Below, piece by piece: positions 20,684 to 50,859 of a DNA stretch of 64,000 nt; the stretch's first letter is position 1; each line of letters starts with the position of its first letter. The position numbers and the translations under genes are program-made. Below the pieces are notes generated by a model. That model ran no database searches. It was not told where the DNA came from and was given only the letters and a program-made list of their open reading frames with translations. Source of the stretch: an uncultured virus (IMG/VR IMGVR_UViG_3300010346_002895) (taxonomy: Duplodnaviria; Heunggongvirae; Uroviricota; Caudoviricetes); the IMG/VR virus record IMGVR_UViG_3300010346_002895. The stretch is one strand, 5' to 3'.

Positions 20684-20695
20684 GCGGCGCTCCCT

Positions 20696-31374: not shown

Positions 31375-31381
31375 CCTGACG

Positions 31382-31490
31382 AAAAACCAGTCCGGAAGTG
31401 TTGAAAGCCGAGCCCGGTAAATAAGCCCGGAAGCGTCGGCCCAAGCCCGGTGACATGCGAGAGATCGCGCGTTGCCGGGCTTTTTATTTT
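31382..31490 (+). ncRNA. Structured cis-regulatory element with terminator, copy 1
   Basis: Four AGYCCGG repeats, GCCGA/TCGGC stem, long hairpin with GAGA loop, T tract; homologous copy at 50543-50653. Confidence 0.7.
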
Positions 31491-31505
31491 TCCGCGAGGT
31501 GCGCA

Positions 31506-34500
31506 ATGGAAACAGACAACTTTAAAACCGATCTTGAAAAAATACAGTTTCTTCTCGAAGCCGACGCGGAACTGCGCCTCGGCCTTCTTGTCGCCGAGGG
31601 CAAGCTGGAACTTGTCACCGAGGAGCTGCCCGCTGAGGAGCGCCCGAAGTATATCACCAATTTCATCGGCTCGAAGCAGAAGCTCGTTGACTGGATATGG
31701 GGCAACACGCCGGAAGACGCGGAATCCGTCTTCGACGCTTTTTCCGGCTCCTCCGTCGTCGGGTACATGTACAAAACCAAGGGGCTGCGGGTGTTTTCGA
31801 ACGACCGGCTGTCTTATTGTTACCATGCCGCCCGTGCCATCGTTGAAAACAACAACACGCGCCTCTCCGAAAAAGACATCGAGGGGCTGCTCAAAGATCA
31901 CAACTCCGAAGCCGGGACGTTCATCCAGAAGACATACCACGGCATCTTCTTCAAGAACGATGTCCTTGCCCTCCTGGATGTGCTTCGCGCCAACATTGAT
32001 GCTCTGTCCGGCACAAAAAAGAGCATGGCGCTGTTCGCGCTGGGTAAGACGTGCATGTCCGGCGGCGGGTTCGGGCATTTCTCGTCCACGACAAAGGGCG
32101 GACAGCGGCACTACACAACCGAGAGTTTTATCGAGCACTACCGAGACAATCTCTATCGCATCAACGCGCTCGTCTTCGACAACGGGAAGGAAAACAAGGC
32201 ATTCAACGGCGACATCCTCGACATCGCCCCGAAAGTCAAAGCCGACCTCGTTTATTTCGATCCGCCTTATGCCACGGAGTTCAGTTCCACGAATTACGAG
32301 AAGTATTACCACTTTGTGGAAGGACTGATGGACTACTGGAAGGACAAAGAGATCGACCACACCAAAAAAATCCGCAATTACAAAATCGAAGACACAGGCG
32401 TCACGCCCGCGACCGCGAAACAGTTCTTCACCGATTTTCTAACCGCTTCGAAGCACATTCCCAACTGGCTTATCTCCTACCGGGACAACGCCTATCCGAC
32501 CGAGTCCGAGATCAAGGGGCTTATCGCGGACCTCGGAAAAGAGTCCCGCATGAAGTCGAAGGATCACAAATACCAGCTCGCGGGCAAGAACCGCCAGGGC
32601 GATCCCTCGAACGCGAAGGAACGCCTGTTCGTGTGCGCTGACGCCGGAGAGGACGACGCGGGACTGTCCGCCGTCGCCAACATGGAGGACATCGCCGATC
32701 TGTCGCACGATGCCGATTTCGATCCGGATGTCCTGAGCGCCATCGCGGGAAAAACGGAAAACATTCTCGTGACCGGGTTCATCGGAAACAAGCACTTCAT
32801 CATGAACTGGATCGATAAAAACTTCCCGAAAGACGCGAAGAGCCTCTTTGACGCTTTTTCCGGCGGCGCGAACGTCGCCTATTTCTACAAACGCAAGGGG
32901 CTGCGTGTAATTACCAACGACATCATGCGCTACCCGTACCACATCGCCCGGGCCGTCATCGAGAACAACACGGAAACCCTCTCCGACGAGGAACTGGAAG
33001 CGCTGATTGAAAAGCACTCCGACGCCGGGACGTTCACCACCGACACGTTCTACGGCTACTACTACACGAAGCCGATCCTCCAGTTCCTCGACACCGTATG
33101 GGCGAATGCCCGGAAACTCAAAGGCTACAAGAAGGACATCGCGCTCGCGGCGCTCGGGCACACCTGCAAGGCCAAGGCCGTGTTCGGGATGTTCAACCGC
33201 AGCAAGATGAACCGGACGCGGAATATAAGCGATCTGGCCGAGGGCTATCGCTCGTCCAGCATCGGGAACATCCCGATTTCCGAGTTCGTCACCGCCTTTA
33301 AAAAATACGTCCGCCAGATAAACGGCCTTGTTTACGACAACGGGCAGGAGAACAAGGCGCACAACTGCGACGTCCTCAAAATTCTTCCCGAAGTAAAAGC
33401 CGACGTCATCTACTGTGATCCGCCTTATATCACCGAGTTTCTGCGGAATGACTATGAGGATTATTACCACTTCGTGGAAGGCCTCATGACCCGGTGGGAA
33501 GGGAAAGAAATTCTCGACACGCCCCGGCACAACTTCGCGTCCCGCACCAAGTATGACAAGGACAGCATCCGCGAACTGCTCGGCAATGTCGTCACCGCCG
33601 CGGCGAAAAACTTCCCGCACATTCTCATCAGCTACCGGGACAAGGCGTTCCCGACAGAAAAGGAAATGAAAGAGATGGTATCTGGTTCCTTCGGCGACGT
33701 GAAAGTGAAGCGCATCGCCGTTGAATACAACATCGTCAAAAAGGAATCCGACGCGGGCGGCAAATACGCGAACGAGCTTCTTTTCATAGGCAAAAAGACA
33801 TCCGCCGGCGCGGCAAAGGCCGGGCGCGAAGACGACGACATCCTGGATGCGATTGCCGATTCCGACTTCAAGATGAAGACGCAGAAAAATTCCCAGATCA
33901 CGCTGGGGCATTCCATTCTTCACCGCTGGTACGCCGCCGGGTGGGATTCAGAGGGCAAAAACGAAACCACCACGTGGACGCGGGAACAGGTCGTCACGGA
34001 ACACACGCGCCTGCACAAACTGGCGCTCGAGCGGAACCTTGTCTTCTCTTTCATTCCCGGCAGCGTGGACGAGACGCTTCCCGATGAATTGAAAAAGCAA
34101 ATAAAAGAAAAATTCGAGCAATCCAACGCTGCGGCGGCGTCCGTTCAGACCCACCCCGAGAACCACACAACCATAATCGGCGACATCCGGCTCGACGGCG
34201 TGAATTTGCTCGCCGCCGAGGGAATCAGTCTGTCCGACAACAACGTTGCGGGCGACAAGGAATTCAGTTTCATCCTCACGCACGCGGGGCCGAACAAGAA
34301 CGGCGATTACTTCAACGTCGAGGAACTCTCCGCGCGGCACCAGACGGCGATCAACAAAAAGATCGACCTTAAACACTCACAGGATTTCACGGACATCGTC
34401 GGCGGCGTCATAGCGAGTGACTTCGTTCAGGAGGGGGAGAAGGCGTGGGTGGAATGCGTCGGGGAGCTTTATACGAACGACAACATCAACTCACGGCTCG

Positions 34501-35366
34501 CGTACAAGCTGATCAAAAAGGGCATCATCACGCAAGTCTCGATGGAGTGCGATTACGAGGAAGGCGAATGCTCGATCTGCGGGAAGCGCGTGCGCACCAA
34601 GGCGGATTACTGCATCCATCTGAAGAAATACAAGGGAGGTGAATTCAAGGGGCAACCCGTTTACGAAATTCTCCACGGCATCACCTTTACGGGACTCGGC
34701 CTGCTGGACCGCAAGGGCGCCGACGAGAACGCGAGGATAAAGCAGGTTGCGGAAAAACACACCAATGAAGGAGGTAGCAACGGTATGGACAGTGAAAACA
34801 AGAATCCCGAAACCGAGGAAACCGAGGCGGCGAAAAACAAAGCGCCCGGCGGCGGCGGAGACAATAGCGCCCGCCTGAAGGAACTCGAGAAGGAGAACAA
34901 AGACCTGAAAGCCAAGCTCGATGAGGTCCAGAAGGAACTGGACAAGCTGCGCGAAGAACAGGCTGCGGCGGCGCGCCGGACACGCTCGGAAAAACTCGTC
35001 AAGGAGATGGAGAACCGGGGCATCGAGTTCGAGGGCGATGACGACCGCGAGACCGAATTGAAACGGCTGGCGGGACTCACCGACGACGCTTTCTCGGCCA
35101 CCGAGGCCGCGGTGAAGCGCGTGAAAAAGCCCAAAGACCAGAAGGAGGAGCCGAACCCGGACGAGAATCCGGAGGACGAGGACAAGAAGAAGGAGAAGGA
35201 CAAGAAACAGCCGCCCAAGAAGAGCAAGGCCGACTCCGGCGGCGGTATGAGCGCGGACGCGGACGTGCGCCCGTTCGATGTCGAGGACGGCGACAAACCC
35301 CTCGAGGAAAAGCTGAAATCCGGCTTCATGGCGGCGTACAACGAGCGCGTCGGCGCGGACAACTGA
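31506..35366 (+). CDS. Fusion: two D12-class N6-adenine DNA methyltransferases + prohead protease + scaffold
   Basis: FIGSK..FDAFSGS..DPPY (32259) and FIGNK..FDAFSGG..DPPY (33417); NKNGDYF..IDLKH..VSMEC..CSIC..GITFTGLG..GAD; charged coiled-coil tail. Confidence 0.85.
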   Translation: METDNFKTDLEKIQFLLEADAELRLGLLVAEGKLELVTEELPAEERPKYITNFIGSKQKLVDWIWGNTPEDAESVFDAFSGSSVVGYMYKTKGLRVFSNDRLSYCYHAARAIVENNNTRLSEKDIEGLLKDHNSEAGTFIQKTYHGIFFKNDVLALLDVLRANIDALSGTKKSMALFALGKTCMSGGGFGHFSSTTKGGQRHYTTESFIEHYRDNLYRINALVFDNGKENKAFNGDILDIAPKVKADLVYFDPPYATEFSSTNYEKYYHFVEGLMDYWKDKEIDHTKKIRNYKIEDTGVTPATAKQFFTDFLTASKHIPNWLISYRDNAYPTESEIKGLIADLGKESRMKSKDHKYQLAGKNRQGDPSNAKERLFVCADAGEDDAGLSAVANMEDIADLSHDADFDPDVLSAIAGKTENILVTGFIGNKHFIMNWIDKNFPKDAKSLFDAFSGGANVAYFYKRKGLRVITNDIMRYPYHIARAVIENNTETLSDEELEALIEKHSDAGTFTTDTFYGYYYTKPILQFLDTVWANARKLKGYKKDIALAALGHTCKAKAVFGMFNRSKMNRTRNISDLAEGYRSSSIGNIPISEFVTAFKKYVRQINGLVYDNGQENKAHNCDVLKILPEVKADVIYCDPPYITEFLRNDYEDYYHFVEGLMTRWEGKEILDTPRHNFASRTKYDKDSIRELLGNVVTAAAKNFPHILISYRDKAFPTEKEMKEMVSGSFGDVKVKRIAVEYNIVKKESDAGGKYANELLFIGKKTSAGAAKAGREDDDILDAIADSDFKMKTQKNSQITLGHSILHRWYAAGWDSEGKNETTTWTREQVVTEHTRLHKLALERNLVFSFIPGSVDETLPDELKKQIKEKFEQSNAAAASVQTHPENHTTIIGDIRLDGVNLLAAEGISLSDNNVAGDKEFSFILTHAGPNKNGDYFNVEELSARHQTAINKKIDLKHSQDFTDIVGGVIASDFVQEGEKAWVECVGELYTNDNINSRLAYKLIKKGIITQVSMECDYEEGECSICGKRVRTKADYCIHLKKYKGGEFKGQPVYEILHGITFTGLGLLDRKGADENARIKQVAEKHTNEGGSNGMDSENKNPETEETEAAKNKAPGGGGDNSARLKELEKENKDLKAKLDEVQKELDKLREEQAAAARRTRSEKLVKEMENRGIEFEGDDDRETELKRLAGLTDDAFSATEAAVKRVKKPKDQKEEPNPDENPEDEDKKKEKDKKQPPKKSKADSGGGMSADADVRPFDVEDGDKPLEEKLKSGFMAAYNERVGADN

Positions 35367-35395
35367 AAAACGGAAAGGAATGGAGGTAACCGACA

Positions 35396-35755
35396 ATGGC
35401 ATATCTGAACGCGAATCACCCCGGCCTTGCGTATGGCGACGGCTACATGCAGGGCGCGGGGAGCATAGGGCAGTTCGTGAAGGCGGTCGGAGACGACACC
35501 TTCGCGGTGAACACCGATCCGGCTGTTCCGTCCGTGGGCGTCCTGATGAAGGATTACGCCGACGGCGAGATGCCCGCTTTCTGGTGCAACGGCGGGGTGT
35601 ACGAGACCGACGTGTTCAGCGGCACGATCAACCCGAACGAGCTTCTGAAGATCGACGGCAACGGCAAACTCACCGGCGGCGGCACGAGCGCCAACGCGGT
35701 CGCCCAGGCGATCAGTGTCTCCGGCGGCATTCTGAAGTTCAAGCTGCTGGTTTAA
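35396..35755 (+). CDS. Probable head decoration protein
   Basis: 119-aa Gly-rich beta protein between scaffold and capsid genes. Confidence 0.65.
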   Translation: MAYLNANHPGLAYGDGYMQGAGSIGQFVKAVGDDTFAVNTDPAVPSVGVLMKDYADGEMPAFWCNGGVYETDVFSGTINPNELLKIDGNGKLTGGGTSANAVAQAISVSGGILKFKLLV

Positions 35756-35782
35756 CCCACAAGGAAGGAGGACACATCCAGC

Positions 35783-36646
35783 ATGGAAACGAAAAAGGTA
35801 AAAACGGACTCCCAGGAGTTCATGGAAAAGATGGGCAAGCTGATGCGCCAGGCGCTGGAGACGCCCGAGGGAATGCGGGCGCTCGCGGCCGCCATCGCCG
35901 CGCCCATCGAGTCGGACATCGCACGCAAGGAAATCACCTCGCTTCTGCTCACGAAGCACAACCTGCCCAAGGGCGAGCGCGCCGTGTACCAGAAGCGGCC
36001 CCGGCTGAGAGCCTACTTCATTTCGAAGGAAGGCGAGGCGCGGGAACAGGAAGTTGGCAAGGACGAGATTGAAATCCCGACCCACCGCGTCCACAGCGCA
36101 CCGATGGTCGATATCTCGATTTTGAAGCATGGGAATGTCGGAACGCTCACGGACATCCAGACGGCATCCTCGGATGAAATCCGCAAGGAGATCGACAAAC
36201 GCACGATCACCGTCATCTCCGCCGCGGTGCCCGCCGAGAACGTTGTCACTATCTCCGGCGGGGTTCTGACCGAGGACGGCCTCAACGACGCCATCAGCAT
36301 CCTCGAGGACAAGGAACTGACCGTGAAGTACATCGTGCTTCGCGGCAAGCGGTTCAACGAGATGCGCTCGTGGGACCTCGACCCGGTCACCCAGCTCGAA
36401 CTGCGCCAGAAGGGCATCATCAAGGTGTACGGCGGCGCGAACATTCTGCTCACCTCGGCGGCGGACGTGAACGAGATTCTCATCGTCCCGGACGAGGAAA
36501 TCGGCAAAATGCCCGTGCGCGAGCCGCTCACCGCGGAAGCCATCGACAAGAAGCTGAAATTCAAGACCGGCTGGCTCATCTGGAGCGAACTCGGCATGGG
36601 CGTAACCCGCCCGGACATCGTCGCAAAAGTCGTCATCCAGCCGTAA
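35783..36646 (+). CDS. Major capsid protein (probable HK97 fold)
   Basis: Position, size, strong RBS (AAGGAGG), GE-motif E-loop. Confidence 0.8.
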   Translation: METKKVKTDSQEFMEKMGKLMRQALETPEGMRALAAAIAAPIESDIARKEITSLLLTKHNLPKGERAVYQKRPRLRAYFISKEGEAREQEVGKDEIEIPTHRVHSAPMVDISILKHGNVGTLTDIQTASSDEIRKEIDKRTITVISAAVPAENVVTISGGVLTEDGLNDAISILEDKELTVKYIVLRGKRFNEMRSWDLDPVTQLELRQKGIIKVYGGANILLTSAADVNEILIVPDEEIGKMPVREPLTAEAIDKKLKFKTGWLIWSELGMGVTRPDIVAKVVIQP

Positions 36647-36663
36647 GCGGAGGAGGAACACGC

Positions 36664-37023
36664 ATGGCAAAGATCAGAAATCTCACACCCGGCATCCTGC
36701 ACGTTCCCGCGGCGAAGCTGCGCCTTCAGGGCGGCGCGGTCGCCGATGTCGACCGTGTAACGCCGGAGATTCAGAAGCAAATCGACGCGGGCCGCATCGC
36801 GGTTGTCACGGACGACGACGCGGCGAATACGGAAGCGCCCGCGCCGGAACTGCCCGAGCCGCCCGCAGATTTCGACAAGCTGGATGAGGCGGACGCCATC
36901 GAGTACGTCGAGGACGAGACCGACCCGAAAGTCATTCAGTCCATTCTGAACGTGGAAAACCGGCCCGGCGTGATCGAGGCGAGCAAAAACCGGCTGAAGG
37001 AGATAACGGATGCTCGCAAGTGA
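36664..37023 (+). CDS. Hypothetical head-associated protein
   Basis: GGAGG RBS; MAKIRNLTPG start. Confidence 0.7.
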   Translation: MAKIRNLTPGILHVPAAKLRLQGGAVADVDRVTPEIQKQIDAGRIAVVTDDDAANTEAPAPELPEPPADFDKLDEADAIEYVEDETDPKVIQSILNVENRPGVIEASKNRLKEITDARK

Positions 37024-37498
37024 CCTCGTCACGCTTCTGCGGCTCGATATCGGGGACACCGCCGGGGAGATGCTCGGAGACGAGTATCTCGCCCGGTGCG
37101 TGACCCGGGCCGTGTACGCCCTGAACAAGGACGCCGGGACATCGTTCGCGGTAAACGGCGGCGAGGTCACACCCGATCCGTCCGGAGAGGAACAGGAACT
37201 CCTTCTCCTGAGAGCGCACATAAACGTCTGTTCGCTCATGCGCTCGATCACGGCGAACGCCTTCTCGTTTCAGAGCGGCGACAAGCACGTGGACAAGACG
37301 AAACAGCCGTCGTTCTGGGCGGACCTTCAGGGCGATCTGGAGAAGGACTACAAGGATCGCGTGAAGAAGTCCGGGATGGACGGCGGCGGCGGTGAAATCG
37401 TGGATGACCCGGACAGCGGAATCATGGCCGCGCCGGCGGTAAAACCCGTGATCTATGAAAGCGGAATTGCAGAGGACGAGAATGCTGCTCTCGGATAA
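37010..37498 (+). CDS. Probable head-tail adaptor
   Basis: 'LLRLDIGD' N-terminus and position. Confidence 0.6.
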   Translation: MLASDLVTLLRLDIGDTAGEMLGDEYLARCVTRAVYALNKDAGTSFAVNGGEVTPDPSGEEQELLLLRAHINVCSLMRSITANAFSFQSGDKHVDKTKQPSFWADLQGDLEKDYKDRVKKSGMDGGGGEIVDDPDSGIMAAPAVKPVIYESGIAEDENAALG

Positions 37499-37844
37499 GG
37501 ACAAGGCGTTCATCGCGGAATGCACGGCGGAACTCATCACCAGTTCCGGCCAGACGGGCAAGAGGTATGTGCCCGATCCTAACGCTGAGAAGATTTACGG
37601 CACGGACGACGCGCCGTTTATCCTGGACTGTGAATTCCCGTTTGAGTTCGTGGAGACGCCCCCTCAAATCCTCACAACGCAAAAGACGGATGCGGCGATA
37701 TCCGTCCTGCCGGATCAGGAGATCAACGAGGGCGACCATGTCGAGTTTAATGGCGTCCAATACAAGGTACTGACGGTCGAGGCGCTTAACGTGTTCGGCG
37801 TCGTCAGTCACAAGGTGGTGACGGTTGCGAAACTGCACCCATGA
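37482..37844 (+). CDS. Probable head closure protein
   Basis: 'EGDHVEFNGVQYKV' and position. Confidence 0.6.
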   Translation: MLLSDKDKAFIAECTAELITSSGQTGKRYVPDPNAEKIYGTDDAPFILDCEFPFEFVETPPQILTTQKTDAAISVLPDQEINEGDHVEFNGVQYKVLTVEALNVFGVVSHKVVTVAKLHP

Positions 37845-38329
37845 AAGTGAAGAAATTCGGTTATTGGAAAAAGGTCGACAGGGTTCTGAAGAACTGTCTT
37901 CCGGCTAATGTCGAGAAAGTTCTGAAAAAGGCGGCGGAGAAATGCGCCTTGCTTCTCGTGCGCGAGATAAAGATGGGAATCAAGTCCCAGGCTCCCGGCG
38001 GCCAGAAGTTTCAGCCGCTCGCGGAGGCGACCATCGAGAAGAAGGGTTCTTCAAAGGCTCTCATCGACACCGGATTTCTGATCAGCGCGATCACCCAGAA
38101 GATCATGGGCGACAAGGCATTCGTGGGACTACTGAGAGGCACGCGGAACAAGGACGGGGACGAGATCGTGAATATCGGTGCGATCATGGAGTTCGGCGCG
38201 ACAGTGCAGATGCCGAGCGGCGTAACCATCGTGATCCCGGCGCGCCCGTTCATCCATCCGGTTATGGAGCAGCACAGGGACGAGTTAAAGCGGATTTTCG
38301 CGGAGGCGATTCTTGAGCTCTTTGGTTAG
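37841..38329 (+). CDS. Virion morphogenesis / tail completion protein
   Basis: PLAEATIEKKGSSKALIDTG...EFGA...IPARPF. Confidence 0.8.
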   Translation: MKVKKFGYWKKVDRVLKNCLPANVEKVLKKAAEKCALLLVREIKMGIKSQAPGGQKFQPLAEATIEKKGSSKALIDTGFLISAITQKIMGDKAFVGLLRGTRNKDGDEIVNIGAIMEFGATVQMPSGVTIVIPARPFIHPVMEQHRDELKRIFAEAILELFG

Positions 38330-38927
38330 GGAAACAGTCGAGACGCTGATCTGGAAACTTCAGGCGGACGTGACACCGCACACGGTTCTCGTGCCCCCGA
38401 ACGATTACTACGAGATCAAGCACACGCCATCGCTTCTCGTCATAGGCCCGAAGATGGAGGAGAACCGCGCGAAACGTGTATCGGAGAAGATCGTGGTGAT
38501 AGACCGCGATGCGCTCACTTACACGGAGCGCAACTGGCCCCGGTTCTACCATCTTGATTTTGATTTCGTACTCACGGCGGGCAACGGAATGGAACTTCTC
38601 GAACTCCAGGAGAGCCTGATCGCGTTTTTTCTGGACAACATCGCGGTGGCCGTGCCCGTTTCCGCCGGATGGGGACTTGGCCCGTTCGGCATCGAGCCGT
38701 GGGGCTCGGAGGACGGCGCCCTGAAGTTTTATCTCCGAGAGATGATCCCCATCGGCGGGCTGGATCGCCCGAATCTGTCGAACCTGCGGCAGGCGTCCGG
38801 CAGGTATCGCATCGAGGACGTGCCGATCTTCGATCACGTTCTCGAGGAAGGCAAACTCGTTCTTTACCGGGACTTCGTTATCTGCGATTTCAAAACGAGG
38901 ATGCCGGTCGAGACATTTTCACGATAA
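38313..38927 (+). CDS. Probable tail terminator
   Basis: Position before the sheath gene; contains a GWG..WG insert. Confidence 0.55.
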   Translation: MSSLVRETVETLIWKLQADVTPHTVLVPPNDYYEIKHTPSLLVIGPKMEENRAKRVSEKIVVIDRDALTYTERNWPRFYHLDFDFVLTAGNGMELLELQESLIAFFLDNIAVAVPVSAGWGLGPFGIEPWGSEDGALKFYLREMIPIGGLDRPNLSNLRQASGRYRIEDVPIFDHVLEEGKLVLYRDFVICDFKTRMPVETFSR

Positions 38928-38946
38928 CGAAACGAGGTGATACGTT

Positions 38947-39159
38947 TTGAAAAACGTTCTTTTGAAAAATATCTCCGGCGCGCTTCTGCCCGTGAATCTC
39001 GGACGGAACCGGGGTCTGCATCTTCTGGCCGGCGAGACGAAAAGCGTTCCGGCGTCAACGATTGAGAACCCCGACGTATTCCGGCTCTTCCGAAAAGGGT
39101 TCCTCGCGGTCATGGACGAGAAGCCCGCCGCGCCGGAGAAAAAGAAGGGCAAATCCTGA
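38947..39159 (+). CDS. Small hypothetical protein
   Basis: GAGGTGA RBS, TTG start, precedes sheath. Confidence 0.6.
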   Translation: MKNVLLKNISGALLPVNLGRNRGLHLLAGETKSVPASTIENPDVFRLFRKGFLAVMDEKPAAPEKKKGKS

Positions 39160-39179
39160 AAGAGAGGTGATCCATCCTC

Positions 39180-40730: not shown

Positions 40731-40731
40731 C

Positions 40732-41193
40732 ATGCCCGCACAGGCAACCGCAATCAACTATTGGGACAAATACGCCTTCATCGTAAAGATCGACGGCGTG
40801 GTCCGCGCGGCGTTCAACAAGTGTTCCGGCCTGAAGGCCGAGGCGGAGGTCATCGAGTATTCCGAGGGCGGCGCGCTCACGCCGCACAAGCAGCCCGGCA
40901 CGATCAAGTTCGACGACATCGAACTCGAACGCGGCATGACGGACGATGACGACCTCTACAACTGGTGGAACGAGATTTACAACCACGCGTCGGGGACAGG
41001 ATCGGCGGATGAGAGGAAGTACAAGCGCAAGGTGACCGTCATCCAAAAGGACAGATCGGGAGCGGAGTTGACCCGATGGGTCATCCCGAAAGCGTTTCCC
41101 GCCGCGTTCGAGACCGACGACTGGGACAACGAGTCCTCCGAGCACCAGATCACCAAGCTGACGCTGGCGCACGAGGGATTCGAGAAAGAATGA
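40732..41193 (+). CDS. Tail tube protein (T4 gp19-like)
   Basis: FNKCSGL..EYSEGG..KQPG..LERG. Confidence 0.9.
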   Translation: MPAQATAINYWDKYAFIVKIDGVVRAAFNKCSGLKAEAEVIEYSEGGALTPHKQPGTIKFDDIELERGMTDDDDLYNWWNEIYNHASGTGSADERKYKRKVTVIQKDRSGAELTRWVIPKAFPAAFETDDWDNESSEHQITKLTLAHEGFEKE

Positions 41194-41201
41194 GGTGACT
41201 C

Positions 41202-41888: not shown

Positions 41889-42055
41889 TCCTGGAGGAAA
41901 CCTTCTTCCTCTGTTACGGCAAGGGGCCGTTCAAGTCGTTTAATGAAGTCGAGCGGCTCCCGGCCCGCGTGCGGCGCTGGTTCGTGGAAAAACTCTCGGA
42001 CCAGTACCGCGAAGAGGAACGTCAAATCAGGAACGCGGCGAGAAGGAAACGATGA
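41855..42055 (+). CDS. -1 frameshift extension of the tail chaperone
   Basis: Slippery A AAT TTT / T TTT TTC at 41855-41864; open -1 frame to TGA 42053-42055. Confidence 0.75.
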   Translation, partial: KFFLPELQEDLILEETFFLCYGKGPFKSFNEVERLPARVRRWFVEKLSDQYREEERQIRNAARRKR

Positions 42056-45000
42056 ACAACTACGGTCTCGGCATACTCATTCAGGCGAAGGATCAGGCCT
42101 CGGCGGTCTTCCAGAAGGTGGAGCGCAATTTCGACTCCCTTTCAAAGAAGAGCGACGAGATGGCTTCGCGCATGCAGGCGTCCTCGAAGATGTTTTACGC
42201 CGGGATCGGAATGATGGGCGGCGGCGCGGCGCTCCTGGGAGGGGTCGGGGCCACAATCAAGGTGGCCGGGGATTTTGAGGAGGCCATGATCGGCGTGCAG
42301 AAGACCACCGGCATGGCGGACGCCGAACTCAAAAAACTCGGCGACCAGTTTCTTACCATGTCCGCGCGGATGCCCAACTCGGCGCGCGAACTCGCAAACA
42401 TCGGCGAGATCGGCGGGCAGCTCGGTATTTCCGGCGTCGAGAATCTCTCCGCGTTCACGGACACGGTGGCGAAACTCGCGTCGGTGTCGGAATTTTCAGC
42501 GGAGGAAGGCGGCGCTGCGCTCGCAAAGATCGCCAACCAGTTCAAGATTCCCATTCAACAGGCGAAAAACATGGGGTCCGTGCTCAACGAGCTGTCGAAC
42601 ATTTCCACCGCGACGGCCCCGACGATTGCCGAGTTGACGAGCCGCATGGCCGGAGCGGGTTCATCGCTCGGCCTGACCATGCCGCAGATTTCCGCCATCG
42701 GCGCGGCGCTCACGGACATGGGTGTCAGTTCCGAGGTTGGCGGCACGGCCATGTCGGACATGTTCATGGAGATGATGAAGCGCACGGACCAGTACGCGAA
42801 AGTCGCGGGCGTCTCCACTGCCGAGTTCAAGCAACTCATTGAAAAGGACGCCTACGGCGCGCTGACGAAATTCGCGTCGGGATTGCAGAAGTTCGACAAA
42901 TTTCAGGTCGCGGACATGCTGACAGACCTCGGCATCGGCGGCGCCCGCGGAACGGACGTACTGCTCAAACTGGTCGAGGCGAACAAGTCCGTCAACGGAC
43001 AGCAGTCGCTTCTGGGGCGGTTCGTGGATACGTCCAACAAGGCGTTCGCCGAGGGAACGTCGCTACAGAGGGAATATGACAACTCTCTCAAGGGCATGAA
43101 CGCGCAGCTCAAAATCGCATGGAACTCCATCGTCGCGGTCGCCATCAGCATCGGGCAACAGCTCGCGCCTTATATAACCCAAGCGGCAAAAGCGGTGTCT
43201 TCGTTTCTCCGGAAATTCGGGGACTGGGCGAAACAGAACCCGAAACTGCTCAAGGGCATTGTGCTGGTCGTCGCCGCGCTCGGCGGACTTCTTCTCGTCG
43301 GCGGCGCGATTCTCACGTTTCTCGGCGCTATCGGGATGCTGTCTGTGGGGCTGTCCGCTCTTCCCGCGGCCGCGGGCGCTATCGGAGGTGTCGTCGCGGC
43401 GATATGGCCCGTGGTCGCGGTCATAGCCGCCGTGATCGCCGCCGGCGCGCTTCTCTACTACGCATGGAAAACCAATTTCGGGGGCATCCGGGATTTCATC
43501 ATGCCGATATGGAACCAGTTGAAACGGGGATTCCAGAATTTCGTCAACATCGTCAAGGGCGTGATCGCTCTCCTTCGCGGACAGCCCATCGGCCCGGAAC
43601 TTGAGAAAAGCCTCAACGCCGCGGGACTCATGAAGACGGTTAAGGGCATCGCCAACTTTCTGAAAATGGCATGGAGTTTTGTCAAAGGCTATGTCACCGG
43701 CTTTATCGAGGCCGTGGAGCCTGTGTACAGAAGTTTGTTTGACGCCCTGAAACCGGTTGTGACGTGGGTTGTCGAGGGCTTCAAAATCGCATGGAACGCC
43801 ATCGGGAAATTCTTCGCCCTGTTTTCCGGTGAAAGCAAGGGCGCCGGGAACAGCGCACAGAGTTTCGGAAAGACTCTCGGACAAATTATCGGATTCATTG
43901 TAACTCTCGGTACACGGGGACTGGTAATCGTCATTCGCATCCTGACGTTCATACTGCCGATCATCGGTAAGATAATCCTTTTCATTTTCAAAGTCATCGT
44001 TGCCGTCGTGAAATTCCAGATCGCGTTCGTAAAAGCAATCATTCAGGCAATCGTCTGGGTGTGGAACTTCGCAAAGGCCATCTGGAACGGACTCGTGAGC
44101 GCCTGGCAAACCGCGAGCCAGTGGATATCGGGCGCGATCAACTACATTTCCAATCTCATATCGATGGTCATCCAGTGGATCGTCGCACGGTGGGCAGCGT
44201 TCAAACAGGCGGTAATCATGATCTGGAACGCGATCACCATGTCCGTTTCCACAGCCGTTAATTTTATTCGCCAGATCATCTCAATGGTTCTCATGGCGAT
44301 CCAGATGCGGTGGCAGCAGTTCAAAATGTTTATCACCATGCTCTGGCAGGCGATATCCATGTCCGTGTCGATGGTGGTGAACGCCATCCAGTCCAGGGTC
44401 ATGGCCGTGGTCTCCGCGATTCAGATGCGCTGGCAGCAGTTCCGGAGCGCGGTCGCCGCCGTGTGGAATTCCATCTCCGCGACGGTGTCCGGAGTGGTCG
44501 CGGGCATTCAGTCGCGCGTACAGGCGGTGATCACATTTATCACCGGCCTTTGGAACGGCCTGAAAACCGCAGTCGGTGCCGTGTGGGATTCCATCGTCGG
44601 CCAGGTCAGTGGAGCCATCGCAACAATCAAGAACAAGCTGCTTGGGCTTATCCCCGGCTGGCTTCGGACGGCGCTCAGTTATATCGGAATCAATATTCCC
44701 GCGCCGTCCGCAAAGGGCGAAGCTTACGCGACCGGCGGTTACGTTGCGAGGACGGGTAGTGTTTCCGCGACGCTCCACGAGGGCGAGGTCATTACCCCGG
44801 CGCCCGCCGTCCAGAAGATTGTCAGTTTTGCGGATAGAATCCCGGCAAGCGGAATCTCCGGCGCAACCAGCGCGGGCAACGTAACACAGCACTTCTCTCC
44901 CCAGATTCATATCAGCCTGCCGAATGTGAAAGAGATCGACAGGCAGTCCGTCGAAGAACTCGCGGAACTGATAATCCGCAAACTCGAATATCTCCAGAAG

Positions 45001-45063
45001 CGGAAGCGAGAGGCCGGTTTCTCGAACGATTTCAATCCCAGTCTGGCGGTGGCAAGACCATGA
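42052..45063 (+). CDS. Tape measure protein
   Basis: TP901-type N-terminal domain, hydrophobic segments, Trp-periodic repeats. Confidence 0.92.
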   Translation: MNNYGLGILIQAKDQASAVFQKVERNFDSLSKKSDEMASRMQASSKMFYAGIGMMGGGAALLGGVGATIKVAGDFEEAMIGVQKTTGMADAELKKLGDQFLTMSARMPNSARELANIGEIGGQLGISGVENLSAFTDTVAKLASVSEFSAEEGGAALAKIANQFKIPIQQAKNMGSVLNELSNISTATAPTIAELTSRMAGAGSSLGLTMPQISAIGAALTDMGVSSEVGGTAMSDMFMEMMKRTDQYAKVAGVSTAEFKQLIEKDAYGALTKFASGLQKFDKFQVADMLTDLGIGGARGTDVLLKLVEANKSVNGQQSLLGRFVDTSNKAFAEGTSLQREYDNSLKGMNAQLKIAWNSIVAVAISIGQQLAPYITQAAKAVSSFLRKFGDWAKQNPKLLKGIVLVVAALGGLLLVGGAILTFLGAIGMLSVGLSALPAAAGAIGGVVAAIWPVVAVIAAVIAAGALLYYAWKTNFGGIRDFIMPIWNQLKRGFQNFVNIVKGVIALLRGQPIGPELEKSLNAAGLMKTVKGIANFLKMAWSFVKGYVTGFIEAVEPVYRSLFDALKPVVTWVVEGFKIAWNAIGKFFALFSGESKGAGNSAQSFGKTLGQIIGFIVTLGTRGLVIVIRILTFILPIIGKIILFIFKVIVAVVKFQIAFVKAIIQAIVWVWNFAKAIWNGLVSAWQTASQWISGAINYISNLISMVIQWIVARWAAFKQAVIMIWNAITMSVSTAVNFIRQIISMVLMAIQMRWQQFKMFITMLWQAISMSVSMVVNAIQSRVMAVVSAIQMRWQQFRSAVAAVWNSISATVSGVVAGIQSRVQAVITFITGLWNGLKTAVGAVWDSIVGQVSGAIATIKNKLLGLIPGWLRTALSYIGINIPAPSAKGEAYATGGYVARTGSVSATLHEGEVITPAPAVQKIVSFADRIPASGISGATSAGNVTQHFSPQIHISLPNVKEIDRQSVEELAELIIRKLEYLQKRKREAGFSNDFNPSLAVARP

Positions 45064-45581
45064 ACGAAACGATCAGCGCGATACCGACGCCGGACAAGGG
45101 ATTCCTCTATTCAGCGGAGAGTGGTGTTGTCCTGGAGTTTTCCGTGAACCCGGCGCAACTCCAGCGGCAGGAACAGGCGACATTCAACACGAGCCTGTCG
45201 CCAGGCGCGCCGGGCGCGTTCGTGCAATATACAGGCGGCGGGGAGCGCAACGTGACGTTCGAACTCGTCCTCGATGCTATCGGAACCAAGGCTGGTCAAG
45301 GCGGTGTCCTGCGCGAGATCGCGATCCTCGAGGCGTTCACCTACCCGGACACGAACGATCTGGTCAACGCGCAATTCGTGCCGCCGCCACGGGCTCTGCT
45401 CGGCATCGGAACCCGTATCTGGGAAGGATACGTCGCGCAGATTCAGTTCACGGAAGAGCGGTTCAATGTGCGGATGGAGCCGGTTTATGTGAAAGCACAG
45501 ATAACTTTTACTCTTGATTTGTGGAAAAACGCAACCAGTCAGAGGATGCACCAGACGCGCCGCCAGATGCTGTCGAGGTAA
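45060..45581 (+). CDS. Tail tube initiator / CIS-tube-like baseplate protein
   Basis: FSVNP..QYTGG..PPP; position. Confidence 0.7.
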   Translation: MNETISAIPTPDKGFLYSAESGVVLEFSVNPAQLQRQEQATFNTSLSPGAPGAFVQYTGGGERNVTFELVLDAIGTKAGQGGVLREIAILEAFTYPDTNDLVNAQFVPPPRALLGIGTRIWEGYVAQIQFTEERFNVRMEPVYVKAQITFTLDLWKNATSQRMHQTRRQMLSR

Positions 45582-45584
45582 ACG

Positions 45585-45869
45585 ATGAGCGTTTTTGAAG
45601 GTTCAAGATACGAGAAGGTGTTCGTCTACACGAGGCGGCTTCGGAATTTTGTGAGAAATACCCTCACGTTCCGGGAAATCGACCGGGCCGTGCCGGACGG
45701 GAGCATCCTGCACACCGTGACCGAGACCGACCGCATAGACAACATCAGTTACCAGTATTACGGAACGCCCGATTACTGGTGGTACATTCTCGACAAGAAT
45801 CCCGGCTTTGATGCTCTCGAACTGCCGGTCGGAAAACAGTTGTGGATACCGCCGATTCCACAGGGGTAA
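45585..45869 (+). CDS. LysM / P2 gpX-like tail protein
   Basis: HTVTETDRIDNISYQYYG..WWYI..NP..LWIP. Confidence 0.8.
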   Translation: MSVFEGSRYEKVFVYTRRLRNFVRNTLTFREIDRAVPDGSILHTVTETDRIDNISYQYYGTPDYWWYILDKNPGFDALELPVGKQLWIPPIPQG

Positions 45870-45873
45870 TGAA

Positions 45874-46677
45874 ATGGCCGTCGTAAATGTCACATCAGCA
45901 TCTTTCGCATCGCCGTACTTCGAGATCACGCTCGGCTCGCATACGCTCTCGCCAGAAGAGTTGTCTCTTGTGACAGATGTCGAAATCAAAGACGAGATTG
46001 AGGAAAAGGATACGGCGACTGTGACGGTGAATGATCCGTTCTTTCGGTTTCAGAAGCTGGCGTCGAAAGGCATGTCGGTGAGAATCGTGGCGGGTTACTT
46101 CATGGGAAAGACAAAAGAGTTCATCGGCGAGGTGTCCGGGCTCACGCCGCAGTTTCCTGAATCGGGGTTGCCGACACTCTCGATTGAATGTTCGGCGAAA
46201 TCGAAAAAGGGACACGAGGGACAGGTGAACAAGTCGTGGAAAAAGATGAAACGCTCCGAGATCGCAAAAAAGATCGCCGGGAAACACGGCTGGACGCCCG
46301 ACGTGGATGAAACAAAAGAAATCGTCGAGCAGGAATCACAGGCCGGTGAATCGGACGTGGACTTCCTTCGCAAAATGGCGCGAAAAGAAAACTTCATCTT
46401 CCGTGTCAAAGGAAACGTCATGCAGTTCAAGAAAGCGCCCGACCTCGATGACCAGTCGCCCGTCGCGGTGTTCGATTACCGCATCGGGAACAACACGGTA
46501 AAGAGTTTTTCGCCCCGTTATGCGAGCGACGAGACGGGAAAAGACATCGAGGGCGCGACCATAAATAACAAGTCGAAGGAAACCGTGAAAACGAAATCCG
46601 AATCGAGCGTCGCCAAGCCGCAGGGAATCAATGACAGCGGCACGGTGAACCGTGGAATCGCCGAAACGCTCTATTAG
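45874..46677 (+). CDS. Baseplate hub (late control D-like), N-terminal part
   Basis: QAGESDVDFLRKMA motif. Confidence 0.8.
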   Translation: MAVVNVTSASFASPYFEITLGSHTLSPEELSLVTDVEIKDEIEEKDTATVTVNDPFFRFQKLASKGMSVRIVAGYFMGKTKEFIGEVSGLTPQFPESGLPTLSIECSAKSKKGHEGQVNKSWKKMKRSEIAKKIAGKHGWTPDVDETKEIVEQESQAGESDVDFLRKMARKENFIFRVKGNVMQFKKAPDLDDQSPVAVFDYRIGNNTVKSFSPRYASDETGKDIEGATINNKSKETVKTKSESSVAKPQGINDSGTVNRGIAETLY

Positions 46678-46708
46678 ACCGACATGGTAATAACGAGGAA
46701 ATTCTGAA

Positions 46709-47200
46709 ATGCAGCCTGTTGAAGCACACGGCATACCGGGTGGTGATACGATCCCCCAGGCCCCGAAAGGCGGCGCGATTTCCGGCGTGGGCACGGGCGG
46801 CGGTAAAACCCAAGTTGAGACCACACATTATTTAAAGGATAACGAGATCGGCGGCGCGCTGCCGGATACCCAGGAGGGTCTCGATGCTGCATCCGGCGCG
46901 AAACATTACAAGAATGAAAAAGCGATGGAGGGCTCGCTCACGCTCGTCCGGGGTTTTCCGCAGATAAATGCCGGTGACAAGATCACGGTTCTCGGCGTCG
47001 GGCCGGTTTTTTCAGGGGAATGGATTGTGAAAACACACACGCTCAAAGTATCGCAGGACGGATGCCAGAGCACGCTGGAACTCACCCGAAACGCGGTCGG
47101 AAATACCGGCAGCGGGCCTGAAACAGGCGGCGGGTTCGAGACGGACAAGATGAAAATGGAAAATACGCCTCTTGATGAAGGCGATTATTCGGAGATGTGA
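46709..47200 (+). CDS. Baseplate hub C-terminal-like protein
   Basis: GFPQINAGDKITVLGVGPVFSGEWIVKTHT..STLEL; own RBS. Confidence 0.7.
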   Translation: MQPVEAHGIPGGDTIPQAPKGGAISGVGTGGGKTQVETTHYLKDNEIGGALPDTQEGLDAASGAKHYKNEKAMEGSLTLVRGFPQINAGDKITVLGVGPVFSGEWIVKTHTLKVSQDGCQSTLELTRNAVGNTGSGPETGGGFETDKMKMENTPLDEGDYSEM

Positions 47201-47201
47201 C

Positions 47202-48134
47202 ATGCCGTCGTTTGTCGGGAAATTTCGCGGGATCGTCGAGGACAACAAGGACCCTGAACATCGGGGACGCCTGAAGTGCAAGTGTCCGCAGGTGTTCGGC
47301 GATGAAGTCCTGGACTGGGCGCTCCCGTGCATGCCTTATGGCGGGGATTCCGGCACCGGGTTCTTTTCCATCCCCAAGAAGGGATCGTCCGTCTGGCTCG
47401 AGTTCGAGCAAGGTGACGCGAACCGGCCCGTCTGGGTCGGCGTGTGGTGGGCAGCGCCGGAGGACAAGACCGAGGCGGCGGACGTCACGCATAAAAAGGA
47501 AAAACAGTCATCGGGTCCGTGGGACGAGGCCGAGACCGGCGACGCGAAGCGGGATGTGCCCGACAACCACGCATGGCAAACGAAATCCGGCCATCGCATC
47601 GAATTGGATGACACGGACGGCCAGACCAAAATCAAAATCACCGACCGCAAGGGGCAGCACATCCTTATCCGGTCGGAAGACGGAAAAGAAAAAATCTACA
47701 TGAAGGACGCCGGTGATAACCGGTTTCTGCTCGACGCCACATCAGGCAAACGGCGCATCCTGATGCAGGACGGCGCGGGAAGCGCGGTTCTCATGGACGC
47801 GGAAAAAGGCGACGTCTATATCGCGTCCGCGAAAGACCTGTCCCTTCTTGCCGGTGAAAATCTTTACATCGGCTGCAAGAGCAACCGCGAGGAGACGGTC
47901 GGCGGTAATCACAACATATCCGTCATGGGAAGCGGCGACTGGGATGTGGCCGGCGCACTCAAGCTGGCGAAGTCTTCCGGCGACGTGAACATTGCAAGCG
48001 GAAGCAAAGCGGCGGCGCGCACGGACGACCCGCTTGCGGCCGCGACGGAAACCGCGGGCGGCTCCGCGCCCCATTCGCACGGCCTGTCTTCGGGCAAGGT
48101 TGGACAGGGCTCTTCTAAAGTGAAAATCGGGTGA
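47202..48134 (+). CDS. Baseplate spike (gpV/VgrG-like OB fold)
   Basis: GKFRGIVEDNKDP..GR, VWLEFEQGD..P, TKSGHRIELDD, C-terminal HSH. Confidence 0.9.
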   Translation: MPSFVGKFRGIVEDNKDPEHRGRLKCKCPQVFGDEVLDWALPCMPYGGDSGTGFFSIPKKGSSVWLEFEQGDANRPVWVGVWWAAPEDKTEAADVTHKKEKQSSGPWDEAETGDAKRDVPDNHAWQTKSGHRIELDDTDGQTKIKITDRKGQHILIRSEDGKEKIYMKDAGDNRFLLDATSGKRRILMQDGAGSAVLMDAEKGDVYIASAKDLSLLAGENLYIGCKSNREETVGGNHNISVMGSGDWDVAGALKLAKSSGDVNIASGSKAAARTDDPLAAATETAGGSAPHSHGLSSGKVGQGSSKVKIG

Positions 48135-48138
48135 TCGT

Positions 48139-48660
48139 ATGTCGGAGTGCCTTAACAACCTTAAAAATTACCTCGGCGATGAGTTGAAATCTAAACTCGG
48201 CGACGTGCTCAAGGACGCGACCGACAGTTCGCCGATGGGTCTCGCTCAGAAAGCGCTCGGCCAGGCGCAGAAACTCCAAGATACAAAATCCGTCGTGTCG
48301 CAGGGCATACAGTCTTTTAAACAGCGGGTCGGACTTCCCGGTGGCCGTCTCGATGGCCTCGGCGGTCTCAATCTCGGGGAAATCAAACAGAAAGCTGAGG
48401 CGCTCAAAGCCAAGGCGCAGGAAGTGCAAAACAAAATCGCGGAGTTTCAGTCACAATTCCCCGGATGCGCGCTCGACCCGGATATCATGGAAACGATCAA
48501 CACGGTCGCATCCATCGACACGAACCTCGATCCCATGAGCATGATCGACACGTCGAAATTGGACGGCGAAATCGCCGATGCGCAATCGAAGATCGAGGAA
48601 GCAACAGATATGCAGTCGCAGTCGGCGCGGCTTCAGGATATGTTTGGGGTGTCGTTATGA
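48139..48660 (+). CDS. Hypothetical helical protein
   Basis: In the baseplate operon. Confidence 0.65.
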   Translation: MSECLNNLKNYLGDELKSKLGDVLKDATDSSPMGLAQKALGQAQKLQDTKSVVSQGIQSFKQRVGLPGGRLDGLGGLNLGEIKQKAEALKAKAQEVQNKIAEFQSQFPGCALDPDIMETINTVASIDTNLDPMSMIDTSKLDGEIADAQSKIEEATDMQSQSARLQDMFGVSL

Positions 48661-49046
48661 ATCTTGGATATCGGGGCATTTCTTTTCCGTTCCGTTTCAA
48701 CGGCCTCGGGTCGGTAGCTTCAAGCACGGTTGAAACGGGCAATCCGGCGCACATCCTTGAAAGCATCCGACAGATCATAGGCACGCGCCGGAGCGAGCGC
48801 GTCATGCGGCCTGAGTTCGGAGCGGACGCGGACAATCTGGTTTTTTCGCCGCAGTCCAATTCCGGCATCCGGATCGCCGCACACAATATCGGCCAGCAGA
48901 TACTCCGGTGGGAAAAGCGCGTCGATCTTCAGAAAGTTGAAATCACCCGTATCGAAGACCTCGAAGCCGAAATAAATCTCAACGTCCAAATCAAGGTCAC
49001 ACGTGAGACCGAGGAAATGAAAATACCGATGAAGAAGGAAGATTAA
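48657..49046 (+). CDS. Baseplate wedge gp25/W-like protein
   Basis: GISFPF..ERVMRPEFG..WEKRV. Confidence 0.9.
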   Translation: MNLGYRGISFPFRFNGLGSVASSTVETGNPAHILESIRQIIGTRRSERVMRPEFGADADNLVFSPQSNSGIRIAAHNIGQQILRWEKRVDLQKVEITRIEDLEAEINLNVQIKVTRETEEMKIPMKKED

Positions 49047-49048
49047 TC

Positions 49049-50536
49049 ATGCCGGAACTCGACGTCAGCCGTCTAGTCAATTTCTCGAAGCAGATCGACT
49101 ACACCAGTCTGGACTGGCTTTCGTTTCTATCCGACATGGTGGATAAGATTCCGCAGCTCACGCCGGAATGGACGGACTACTCCGCGTCCGATCAGGGCAT
49201 GGTCATCCTTGAACTTGTTTCTTTTGTACTGGACGCTCTTTCATACCGGTGCGACGTGATCGCAAACGAGGCCTACATCCAGACCGCCGTCCTGCGGAAA
49301 TCCGTCCTGAACCTTGCGAAGATGATTGATTACACCCCGGCGCCCGCTGTTTCGGCGGTGACCGATCTTGTGTTCACGATAACGCAGCAGCCGATTGATT
49401 TTGTGATTCCGGCGGGCACACAGGTTTCCACCCAGCCGACCGGCGTCGAGGAAAGTTATGTGTTCGAGACGATGGACGACCTCACTATTCCGGCTGGACA
49501 GACAACCGGCACGGTCGCCGCAATCGAGGGGGAAACAAAAAAGGAAATCCTCGGAAGCAGCACGGGACTCCCCGCGCAGTTCTTTGAATTGAGTTTCAAA
49601 CCTCTTTCTTATGCGCCGGACGCCACATGCTCGCTTGAAGTCTATGTGACTGAAAACGGCATCGAGGAACGATGGACGCTCGTGCCGTCGCTTCTCGACA
49701 GCAAACCGTTTGAAAAACACTGTGAAATCGAGATTGATGAAAACGACATCGTGACTGTGAACTTCGGAGACAATCAGAACGGCAAAATCCCCGCGCCGGG
49801 CATGAACAACGTCCGCGCCGTTTACCGTGTCGGCGGCGGCGCGCACGGCAATGTAGGCGCGAACAAGATCAACCGGATGGTTTCAAATATCTCTGAAGTG
49901 TCGTCTGTGACGAATCCGGCTCAGGCAATGGGCGGCGTGGACCGCGAGACGGTTGAGAGTATCAAGCGCATGGCTCCGAGAATGCTGCGAACGCTCTGGC
50001 GCGCCGTGACCGCCGAGGATTACAAAACACTCGCCGAAGTCCTACCGGGAGTTGCTAAAGCCACGGTTCTGTGCGCCCCGCCCGGGCAAGCGGCGTACTG
50101 GGGACAGGTGAATCTTTACATCGCCCCCGAAGGCGGCGGACTTCCGACAGAGGAACTCAAAAAGATGGTTGAGGAATATTTCGCCGACCGCGAAATGCTG
50201 ACGGCGACGACTGTCGTGTTCGATCCAGTGTATGTTCCGGTGAATGTCTCTCTCGAAGTCGCCGTGAAAGAGAACTACATGCGGCTCGATATCGAGAACG
50301 CCGTTCGTAAAGCCGTGCAGGACTTCTTCAATTTCCCGAACGTGGACTTCGGGCAGTGTGTGTTTATGAGCGATCTCGTCGCCGCCGTGGATGCTATCGA
50401 GGGTGTGCGGTATGTGAATCTGTCGGTTCTTTCACGCGACGTGACCGGCGTCGGGAACGTCATTATCTCCGCGAATGAAATCCCGCAGCTCGGAGCGCTT
50501 TCAATTGACACTTTTGGGGGCATAGAAGAATCGTAA
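49049..50536 (+). CDS. Baseplate J/gp47-like protein
   Basis: IDYTSLD..PEWTD..FGDN.NGKIP..YRVGGG..RAVTAEDY. Confidence 0.9.
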   Translation: MPELDVSRLVNFSKQIDYTSLDWLSFLSDMVDKIPQLTPEWTDYSASDQGMVILELVSFVLDALSYRCDVIANEAYIQTAVLRKSVLNLAKMIDYTPAPAVSAVTDLVFTITQQPIDFVIPAGTQVSTQPTGVEESYVFETMDDLTIPAGQTTGTVAAIEGETKKEILGSSTGLPAQFFELSFKPLSYAPDATCSLEVYVTENGIEERWTLVPSLLDSKPFEKHCEIEIDENDIVTVNFGDNQNGKIPAPGMNNVRAVYRVGGGAHGNVGANKINRMVSNISEVSSVTNPAQAMGGVDRETVESIKRMAPRMLRTLWRAVTAEDYKTLAEVLPGVAKATVLCAPPGQAAYWGQVNLYIAPEGGGLPTEELKKMVEEYFADREMLTATTVVFDPVYVPVNVSLEVAVKENYMRLDIENAVRKAVQDFFNFPNVDFGQCVFMSDLVAAVDAIEGVRYVNLSVLSRDVTGVGNVIISANEIPQLGALSIDTFGGIEES

Positions 50537-50542
50537 ACAGGT

Positions 50543-50653
50543 AAAAACGAGTCCGGCAGTATTGAAACTTCGAGCCCGGTAACCAGCCCGGCCGCATCGA
50601 GGTCAAGCCCGGTGGTCACGCGAGAAATCGTGGATTGCCGGGCTTTTTATTTT
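50543..50653 (+). ncRNA. Structured cis-regulatory element with terminator, copy 2
   Basis: Four AGYCCGG repeats, ACTTCGA/TCGAGGT stem, hairpin with GAAA loop, T tract. Confidence 0.7.
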
Positions 50654-50833: not shown

Positions 50834-50859
50834 AAAACAACCACAAGGAGGCTGATTTT

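Follow-up and report, generated by a model that had tools for sequence, protein, structure and literature searches.

We analyzed a window of 64,000 nucleotides (nt) from an uncultured Caudoviricetes virus (IMG/VR record IMGVR_UViG_3300010346_002895), in particular an RNA element that occurs there twice and the small gene that precedes its first copy. The window is a contractile-tailed prophage, in which integrase, sigma-like, RecD-like helicase and primase genes are followed by a late run on the + strand that encodes terminase, portal, MuF, a methyltransferase fusion, capsid, sheath, tape measure, baseplate J and amidase (RecD and tape measure were named by sequence and position). A sequence-only reading had described two homologous intergenic elements with four AGYCCGG repeats each, and both were recovered, copy 1 at 31382-31490 and copy 2 at 50543-50653. 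The copies start with AAAAACS-AGTCCGG and are 80% identical (E 2.7e-19). On the + strand the repeats begin at 31389, 31411, 31424 and 31444 in copy 1 and at 50550, 50573, 50585 and 50606 in copy 2; each copy has one more on the - strand, in the 3' arm of its terminator. AGYCCGG is over-represented across the window (49 occurrences versus 18.9 expected), and hence its clustering rather than its presence is the signal: at least two within 80 nt are found in the window only at copies 1 and 2. These two copies were also the only matches of a covariance model in the window and in its 4.4-Mb genome (97% complete). The proposed comparison with Rfam matched no known family: at gathering threshold Rfam 15 had no match in the window, with only chance matches (E<=10) around copy 1, and none in 15 homologous or related loci. 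A collection of isolated phages matched neither the element nor the protein of 48 amino acids (aa) encoded upstream of copy 1, and a look-up of sequencing runs listed none from RNA. The features at the two sites are as follows.

31228..31374, + strand: 48-aa small gene, start overlapping the stop of an upstream 115-aa late gene; candidate RNA-binding antiterminator
31375..31388, + strand: cargo slot 1, empty here; relatives have variable genes in it (0.6-1.4 kb)
31389..31450, + strand: nested antiterminator hairpin of copy 1 (computed folds, pair list, covariation)
31398-31403 with 31442-31446: outer motif of copy 1, bulged G at 31400
31409-31413 with 31433-31438: inner motif of copy 1, bulged G at 31435
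31443..31491, + strand: intrinsic terminator of copy 1 (stem 31443-31482, GAGA loop 31461-31464, U-tract 31481-31491; -29.2 kcal/mol, z -5.8)
31506..35366, + strand: D12-class adenine methyltransferase fusion, the first putatively gated gene after copy 1; head genes follow
49049..50536, + strand: baseplate J gene, its last codons free of the -10-like hexamer seen in cargo-bearing relatives
50537..50549, + strand: cargo slot 2, empty here; occupied in L413/L441, L440 and L119
50550..50612, + strand: nested antiterminator hairpin of copy 2 (computed folds, covariation)
50559-50565 with 50603-50608: outer motif of copy 2, bulged A at 50561
50570-50575 with 50594-50600: inner motif of copy 2, bulged A at 50596
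50605..50653, + strand: intrinsic terminator of copy 2 (GAAA loop, U-tract 50644-50653; -29.1 kcal/mol, z -5.5)
50682..53517, + strand: putatively gated genes after copy 2, start of the distal tail and amidase module

Computed folds of the element

The stems GCCGA/TCGGC and ACTTCGA/TCGAGGT match the earlier description, as do the two loops (GAGA and GAAA) and the U-tracts. Repeats 2 and 3 were said to lie free in a loop, which does not hold: the CCGG of each pairs with that of the other, and repeat 1 pairs in the same way with repeat 4 before the terminator is complete. When the transcript was cut before the 3' arm, all 17 close homologues folded into one nested hairpin that occupies the 5' arm of the terminator, with an outer register that varies in 4 of the 17. 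In copy 1 this 5' arm is common to the hairpin and the terminator. With the full-length transcript the terminator was favored by 13-20 kcal/mol in the 17 homologues, and the predicted change from hairpin to terminator came with the emergence of the 3' arm. Within the hairpin the same motif occurs twice, head to head, as GY, a bulged purine and UYG paired with CRA-GC. The folding z of the whole element is -4.0 for copy 1 and -3.7 for copy 2, a signal that stems from the terminator, the 5' half by itself being ordinary (z -0.6).

We then compared the element across homologues, which were obtained by searching collections of viral, metagenome and genome sequences with patterns and proteins. The first, repeat-based pattern returned unrelated repeats in 14 of 20 matches, and 72 of 80 matches to a looser pattern were without terminator or small gene. 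The resulting alignment holds 32 distinct elements, including a Planctomycetota-type clade of 60-65% GC. Three chance matches (L321, L330 and L395) and one element with an expanded middle (L155) were left out of it, a repetitive false match (P0004) was excluded from the alignments, one chance match at L491 was removed from the held-out count, and L297 and L312 were reclassified from negatives to real elements.

The bulged-purine duplex, twice repeated, is kept in all 32 homologues; the outer motif and the terminator arms were part of the search patterns, so that their invariance is circular and no evidence. The nested pairing is present in 96.3% of the cells. Covariation in homologues, which the sequence-only reading had asked for, was found in the inner helix: double changes occur at three inner pairs (25 cells) and none of 500 shuffles was as good. 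One pair needs at least three changes on a tree built from the remaining columns, and both double changes appear again in two held-out members of the Planctomycetota-type clade (L451 and L454). A tandem fold of two hairpins breaks at two pairs, in 18 and 5 of the 32 elements, respectively. The many G-U pairs in the hairpin point to RNA. In all but a few decayed-looking copies the terminator and its U-tract overlap the hairpin. A hairpin of repeats 1 and 2, suggested by RNAalifold for the 17 close homologues, was rejected because its pairing breaks in the wider set.

The claim of a cis-acting RNA attenuator with an intrinsic terminator before head and tail genes stood up to this comparison; the TRAP- or HutP-like multimer that had been imagined to bind four single-stranded AGYCCGG repeats, including the one in the terminator arm, did not. 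Four repeats are present in 15 of the 32 elements, and in that clade repeats 1 and 3 have an unpaired and well-conserved AG before CCGG, but five homologues have two repeats and 12 only one. The conserved single-stranded array expected of TRAP or HutP is missing in these 17, the CCGG cores pair mutually, and the spacing is uneven (22, 13 and 20 nt). We therefore give the multimer the least credence of all the explanations considered here. The unpaired AGY at the front of repeats 1 and 3 (31389-31391, 31424-31426, 50550-50552 and 50585-50587) varies between C and T at its last position in the clade that keeps it, and would also permit pairing with the 3' arm of the terminator.

The next start codon follows the U-tract after only 14 nt (copy 1) and 28 nt (copy 2), ribosome-binding site included, which leaves no room for a promoter. 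Terminators in the late operon thus need read-through, as the sequence-only reading had argued. Such read-through might require no activator: a kinetically leaky terminator, or one at which the small protein promotes termination, would let a fixed share of transcripts pass, set the dosage of head and tail genes and shield late genes from the cargo promoters described below. In the computed folds the antiterminator hairpin does form first and unaided, with pair probabilities of 0.7-0.98 before the 3' arm, and folding kinetics alone could allow read-through. A leaky terminator leaves the invariant, twice-present and pseudo-symmetric bulged motif unexplained, however, and the operon of the major capsid protein requires high read-through; a repressor would presumably bind the terminator conformation and not the competing helix. 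We consider this explanation quite improbable.

The 48-aa gene and its linkage to the element

The 48-aa gene ends 14 nt before copy 1 and is under purifying selection (pS 0.35-0.79 versus pN 0.00-0.16 in six close homologues). By sequence it appears to be a distant relative of DUF2292/YezD. Of 43 family members, 13 matched PF10055 (DUF2292) at E<=0.1, the best with 1.6e-5, and the family profile compared with a canonical DUF2292 member gave E 2e-4 and a probability of 46%. The protein of the window itself had no PF10055 match, and the family member P0007 reached 21.0 bits, the Pfam gathering score being 22 bits. The family forms a clade separate from canonical DUF2292 (100/100, long branch). 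The predicted structure of the 48-aa protein is alpha-beta-beta (pLDDT 87.6); searches against solved structures gave a best Z of 2.7 and no Foldseek match at E<=0.001, the best score in the ESM Atlas (0.79) was uninformative, and a homodimer prediction scored 0.16, which gives no verdict. Pfam detected no CAT, PRD or ANTAR domain in the 48-aa protein or the 43 family members. The host genome contained no canonical DUF2292 above the cut-off, and six canonical PF10055 loci had no bulged-purine double motif, two of them having a short CCAG/CYGG-type hairpin (by eye).

OscA is encoded upstream of a sulfate-binding gene on the same transcript (PMC3596284), and in another paper yezD appears only in a table (PMC11925247). 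The 48-aa protein resembles DUF2292/YezD/OscA (PF10055) in being small, in heading a regulated unit and in its distant sequence similarity. Our literature search found no paper that gives DUF2292/YezD/OscA a molecular function.

Small gene and element tend to occur together. Among 80 loci anchored on the methyltransferase gene, 8 had both, 72 had neither and none was discordant, the 8 concordant loci being one clade. A small gene lies upstream on the same strand, within 1.5-3 kb, of 17 of 31 elements and of none of 62 ordinary terminators caught by the same search pattern (of 64 loci initially counted as negatives, 45 had at least 1.5 kb of upstream sequence). Most of the 14 elements without a nearby small gene occupy second sites, as copy 2 does. 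One Planctomycetota class was sampled with 101 genomes, which are related and hence not independent and whose assemblies are incomplete; of these, 19 had the element, 17 the gene and 10 both, versus 3.2 expected. Twelve genomes of the host's order included five with both, three with the gene only and none with the element only.

Of 72 distant relatives (L036-L108), 55 have a CCGACA-N14-CCGGTA motif in place of gene and element, located 50-120 nt before the methyltransferase gene; it is likely a phage-specific late promoter, and the five such regions tested had no Rfam match. Repeats 1 and 2 of the element resemble it, but are spaced by 17 instead of 14 nt; a promoter reading of these repeats was rejected for this and also because the transcript would stop at the terminator.

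A real attenuator could also be opened by something other than the 48-aa protein, namely a host protein, another phage protein or, as with lambda Q, a polymerase modified at the late promoter, with the small gene travelling along as carrier of the cargo promoter and 5' border of the slot. Such an opener would fit seven to nine genomes that have the element without the small gene, as well as a relative in which three elements stand beside a broken small gene whose promoter persists, and the window encodes Mor-like (E 0.2) and sigma-like proteins. It fits less well that the promoter-less gene of the window type, beside its element, is still under strong purifying selection. Processive antitermination moreover works without a conserved structure at the individual terminators, whereas the bulged motif is conserved at all sites, and distant phages without the gene are also without the element and have the promoter-like motif instead in 55 of 72. 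Hence, we regard another opener as unlikely, if less so than a leaky terminator.

Cargo slots and the promoter in the upstream gene

In relatives, variable genes spanning 0.6-3.3 kb, which we call cargo, lie between the small gene and the element. Slots of this kind occur at the head site, between the genes for the RecD-like protein and primase, and within remnants of Planctomycetota prophages; cargo without a small gene is found at the baseplate J site and at a third site before a tail-terminator-like gene. The cargo ends 10-130 nt before the element and has a GC content of 0.32-0.42 versus 0.50-0.57 for the host lineage. We scanned 28 cargo proteins from 23 loci, which differ by length, start sequence and family. 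Pfam matched nine of them, including TIR/SEFIR, Fic, nucleotidyltransferase with HEPN and NucS-TPR, and had no match for the other 19; PADLOC gave clear matches for six (bSEFIR, SoFic, PDC-S09, PDC-S11, PDC-S60 and a viperin-like radical SAM domain). In one further locus (L126) the start of a cargo gene follows the small gene before the contig ends; by eye, it resembles a DarT-type ADP-ribosyltransferase.

Lambdoid morons, which are read through by Q-modified polymerase, and P2/P4 defence hotspots comprise low-GC accessory genes with their own promoter and terminator within a lytic operon. Variable low-GC genes, promoter-like sites and a terminator are likewise found together in the relatives of the prophage, not in the window. 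Unlike in morons and hotspots, promoter and terminator here are part of the phage backbone, the terminator comes with a putative site-specific switch, and in cargo-bearing relatives the putative promoter lies inside the candidate antiterminator gene.

We identified promoter-like sites by matches to a sigma-70-like consensus and scored the -10 hexamer at 5/6 or better. In cargo-bearing small genes, the V-T/I-I codons read TACAAT or TATAAT; these are accompanied by a TG extension or by a TTGACA-like hexamer that lies 16 nt upstream. A -10 at this score was present in 16 of 20 cargo-bearing small genes and in none of 7 empty-slot genes, a contrast that amounts to about one event because the promoter-less genes form one clade (99/98); it was also present in 9 of 12 small genes with no element in view. 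Codon usage within the same genes served as a control: GTT was used 24 of 26 times at the site versus 5 of 47 times for other valines, and ACA 18 of 22 times at the site versus 4 of 29 times for other threonines. The 48-aa gene of the window is without this internal promoter. At the second site, a -10-like hexamer is found in the last codons of J in all three cargo-bearing loci with J in view and in none of five empty ones, which contributes one or two further events to the contrast. The third site has a promoter-like sequence in the one locus concerned, matching at 10 of 12 positions.

A further explanation takes the element for an attC-like site of DNA recombination as in integrons: after each cargo gene, an imperfect inverted repeat whose extrahelical bases are part of the site would serve a tyrosine recombinase in swapping cassettes. 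The short distance from cargo end to element, the bulged bases in each arm, the two tyrosine recombinases of the window and the element-gene-element arrays in three loci (L513, L517 and L457) are compatible with such a site, and a promoter hidden in the upstream gene recalls the integron Pc promoter. However, we saw by eye no conserved site such as a recombination core at the 5' junction of the cargo, and empty slots retain the complete element. The hairpin is overlapped by a terminator and U-tract almost throughout, the upper stem of that terminator follows the genomic site and not the cargo, and the duplication in L517 takes in the start of the methyltransferase gene. We consider an attC-like site very unlikely, its chances being only slightly better than those of the multimer. 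In L517 (1242-2960) the element and the first methyltransferase codons are duplicated around an inverted Fic-like gene, possibly a snapshot of cargo capture.

A proposed gate and the surrounding genes

Overall, we consider it slightly more probable than not that the element is a protein-gated transcription attenuator that also insulates cargo slots, such that cargo transcripts stop and lytic ones read through. This proposal builds on two exclusive folds, covariation, a real protein, its linkage to the element and a correlation between promoter and cargo. According to the computed folds, the long hairpin would form first during transcription and hide the 5' arm of the terminator; the emerging 3' arm would then displace the outer helix and the terminator would form, making a stop the default. 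The 48-aa DUF2292-like protein, probably in two copies, might bind both bulged-purine motifs and hold the outer helix, so that the polymerase could proceed to the head and tail genes; on copy 2 it would act in trans. Comparison with cargo-bearing relatives suggests that in the lysogen the cargo is transcribed from a sigma-70-like promoter, located inside the small gene or in the final codons of J. Such a cargo transcript would be without the start of the small gene, would yield no protein and would end at the element, and only transcripts from upstream lytic promoters would encode the protein and open the gate. In the window, where both slots are empty and promoter-less, the switch would simply gate the late genes, with positive feedback. 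The sequence-only reading had not noted that an antiterminator helix competes with the terminator, that a 48-aa candidate factor is encoded directly upstream of copy 1 or that both sites serve as cargo slots in relatives.

Several observations weigh against the protein-gated attenuator, in addition to the circular invariance of the searched motifs, the single clade of concordant loci and the near-single event behind the promoter contrast. The hairpin formed before the terminator is no more stable than shuffles (z -3.0 to +0.1), the tandem fold fits L155 better than the nested one, and both folds are broken in the held-out elements L490 and L491. The direction in which the protein acts, read-through, is suggested by the fold only. 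In the class sample, with its incomplete assemblies, nine genomes have the element without the small gene (two are weak matches without the motif; in seven the flanks were examined and held no small gene) and seven have the gene without the element. The head-site small gene is broken in the relative with three elements (L520), a genome that carries other intact copies of the gene. Finally, 4 of the 20 cargo-bearing small genes score under 5/6 at the -10, and L434 has no promoter within the 400 nt examined.

The extra third element in this close relative (L520/L521, G003:C36) lies after a cargo gene and before a tail-terminator-like gene, and its 5' half is nearly identical to the head-site copy.

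The gate would have parallels among known antiterminators. BglG, SacY and LicT are small RNA-binding dimers whose RAT hairpin of about 30 nt partly overlaps an intrinsic terminator and blocks its formation (PMC12591593). In the computed folds the hairpin described here likewise overlaps and excludes an intrinsic terminator. Unlike these proteins, the 48-aa protein has neither CAT nor PRD and is predicted to be alpha-beta-beta; the hairpin is 60 nt long, contains its motif twice and is situated in phage lytic operons, and control would depend on where the transcript starts and not on phosphorylation. ANTAR proteins (AmiR, NasR and EutV) are described as dimers that read two copies of an RNA motif upstream of and overlapping a terminator, the targets being two tandem hairpins recognized via A and G of a hexaloop and the protein a three-helix bundle (PMC12591593). 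The element resembles these targets in having two motif copies upstream of and overlapping the terminator, but its motifs are bulged duplexes and the nested fold is favored, the tandem fold being broken at one pair in 18 of 32.

We found no description of this system in the literature; supplements were outside the search, and an RNA-motif catalogue there could hold it. In our view the element is a real attenuator RNA of a phage that has so far not been catalogued; it has a good candidate factor, and the logic of its cassettes is unusual. More tentatively, it may be part of a phage module in which a DUF2292-like antiterminator gene hides a cargo promoter in its own coding sequence and the same gate stops lysogenic and passes lytic transcripts. 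With such a module, early and late operons could contain safe and portable slots at several places, in which the phage keeps defence and toxin-antitoxin genes, and DUF2292/YezD/OscA would gain a first molecular function with a cooperative two-site RNA target. If so, it could explain the presence of constitutively expressed cargo in the lytic operons of temperate phages that have no recognised Q- or N-type system. A short RNA target (about 60 nt plus terminator) and a candidate protein of 48 aa would become available for a family whose function is not described in the literature searched, and gene and element would mark slots that can be mined for defence genes.

The remaining genes near the two copies are listed below.

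35783-36646: major head protein, after the methyltransferase fusion
50682-50834, + strand: conserved 50-aa open reading frame (ORF)
50860-53517, + strand: 885-aa ORF

The methyltransferase fusion (31506..35366) matched phrog_2774. The genes after copy 2 had been called tail-fibre genes, an assignment that rests on position: Pfam had no match for the 885-aa and 1175-aa products, and the 351-aa product between them is Tail_P2_I. An inverted block of four genes on the - strand (20366-22250), which includes the second tyrosine recombinase (20696-21622), lies between the gene at 19238-19942 and the large terminase gene. The 77-aa Mor-like gene (18817-19050; PF08765, E 0.2) upstream of the late genes is a possible late activator, and a long inverted repeat is located at about 7250-7490 between the divergent integrase and sigma-like genes. 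The MuF fusion (25883-30412, 1509 aa) has a weak HipA_C-like kinase match (E 1.6e-4) and is followed by two small conserved genes, together resembling a MuF-linked toxin/immunity arrangement. The prophage is flanked by a 1405-aa gene without Pfam match (1763-5980) and an HNH-repeat gene (60570-62072), both of which are possibly defence cargo.

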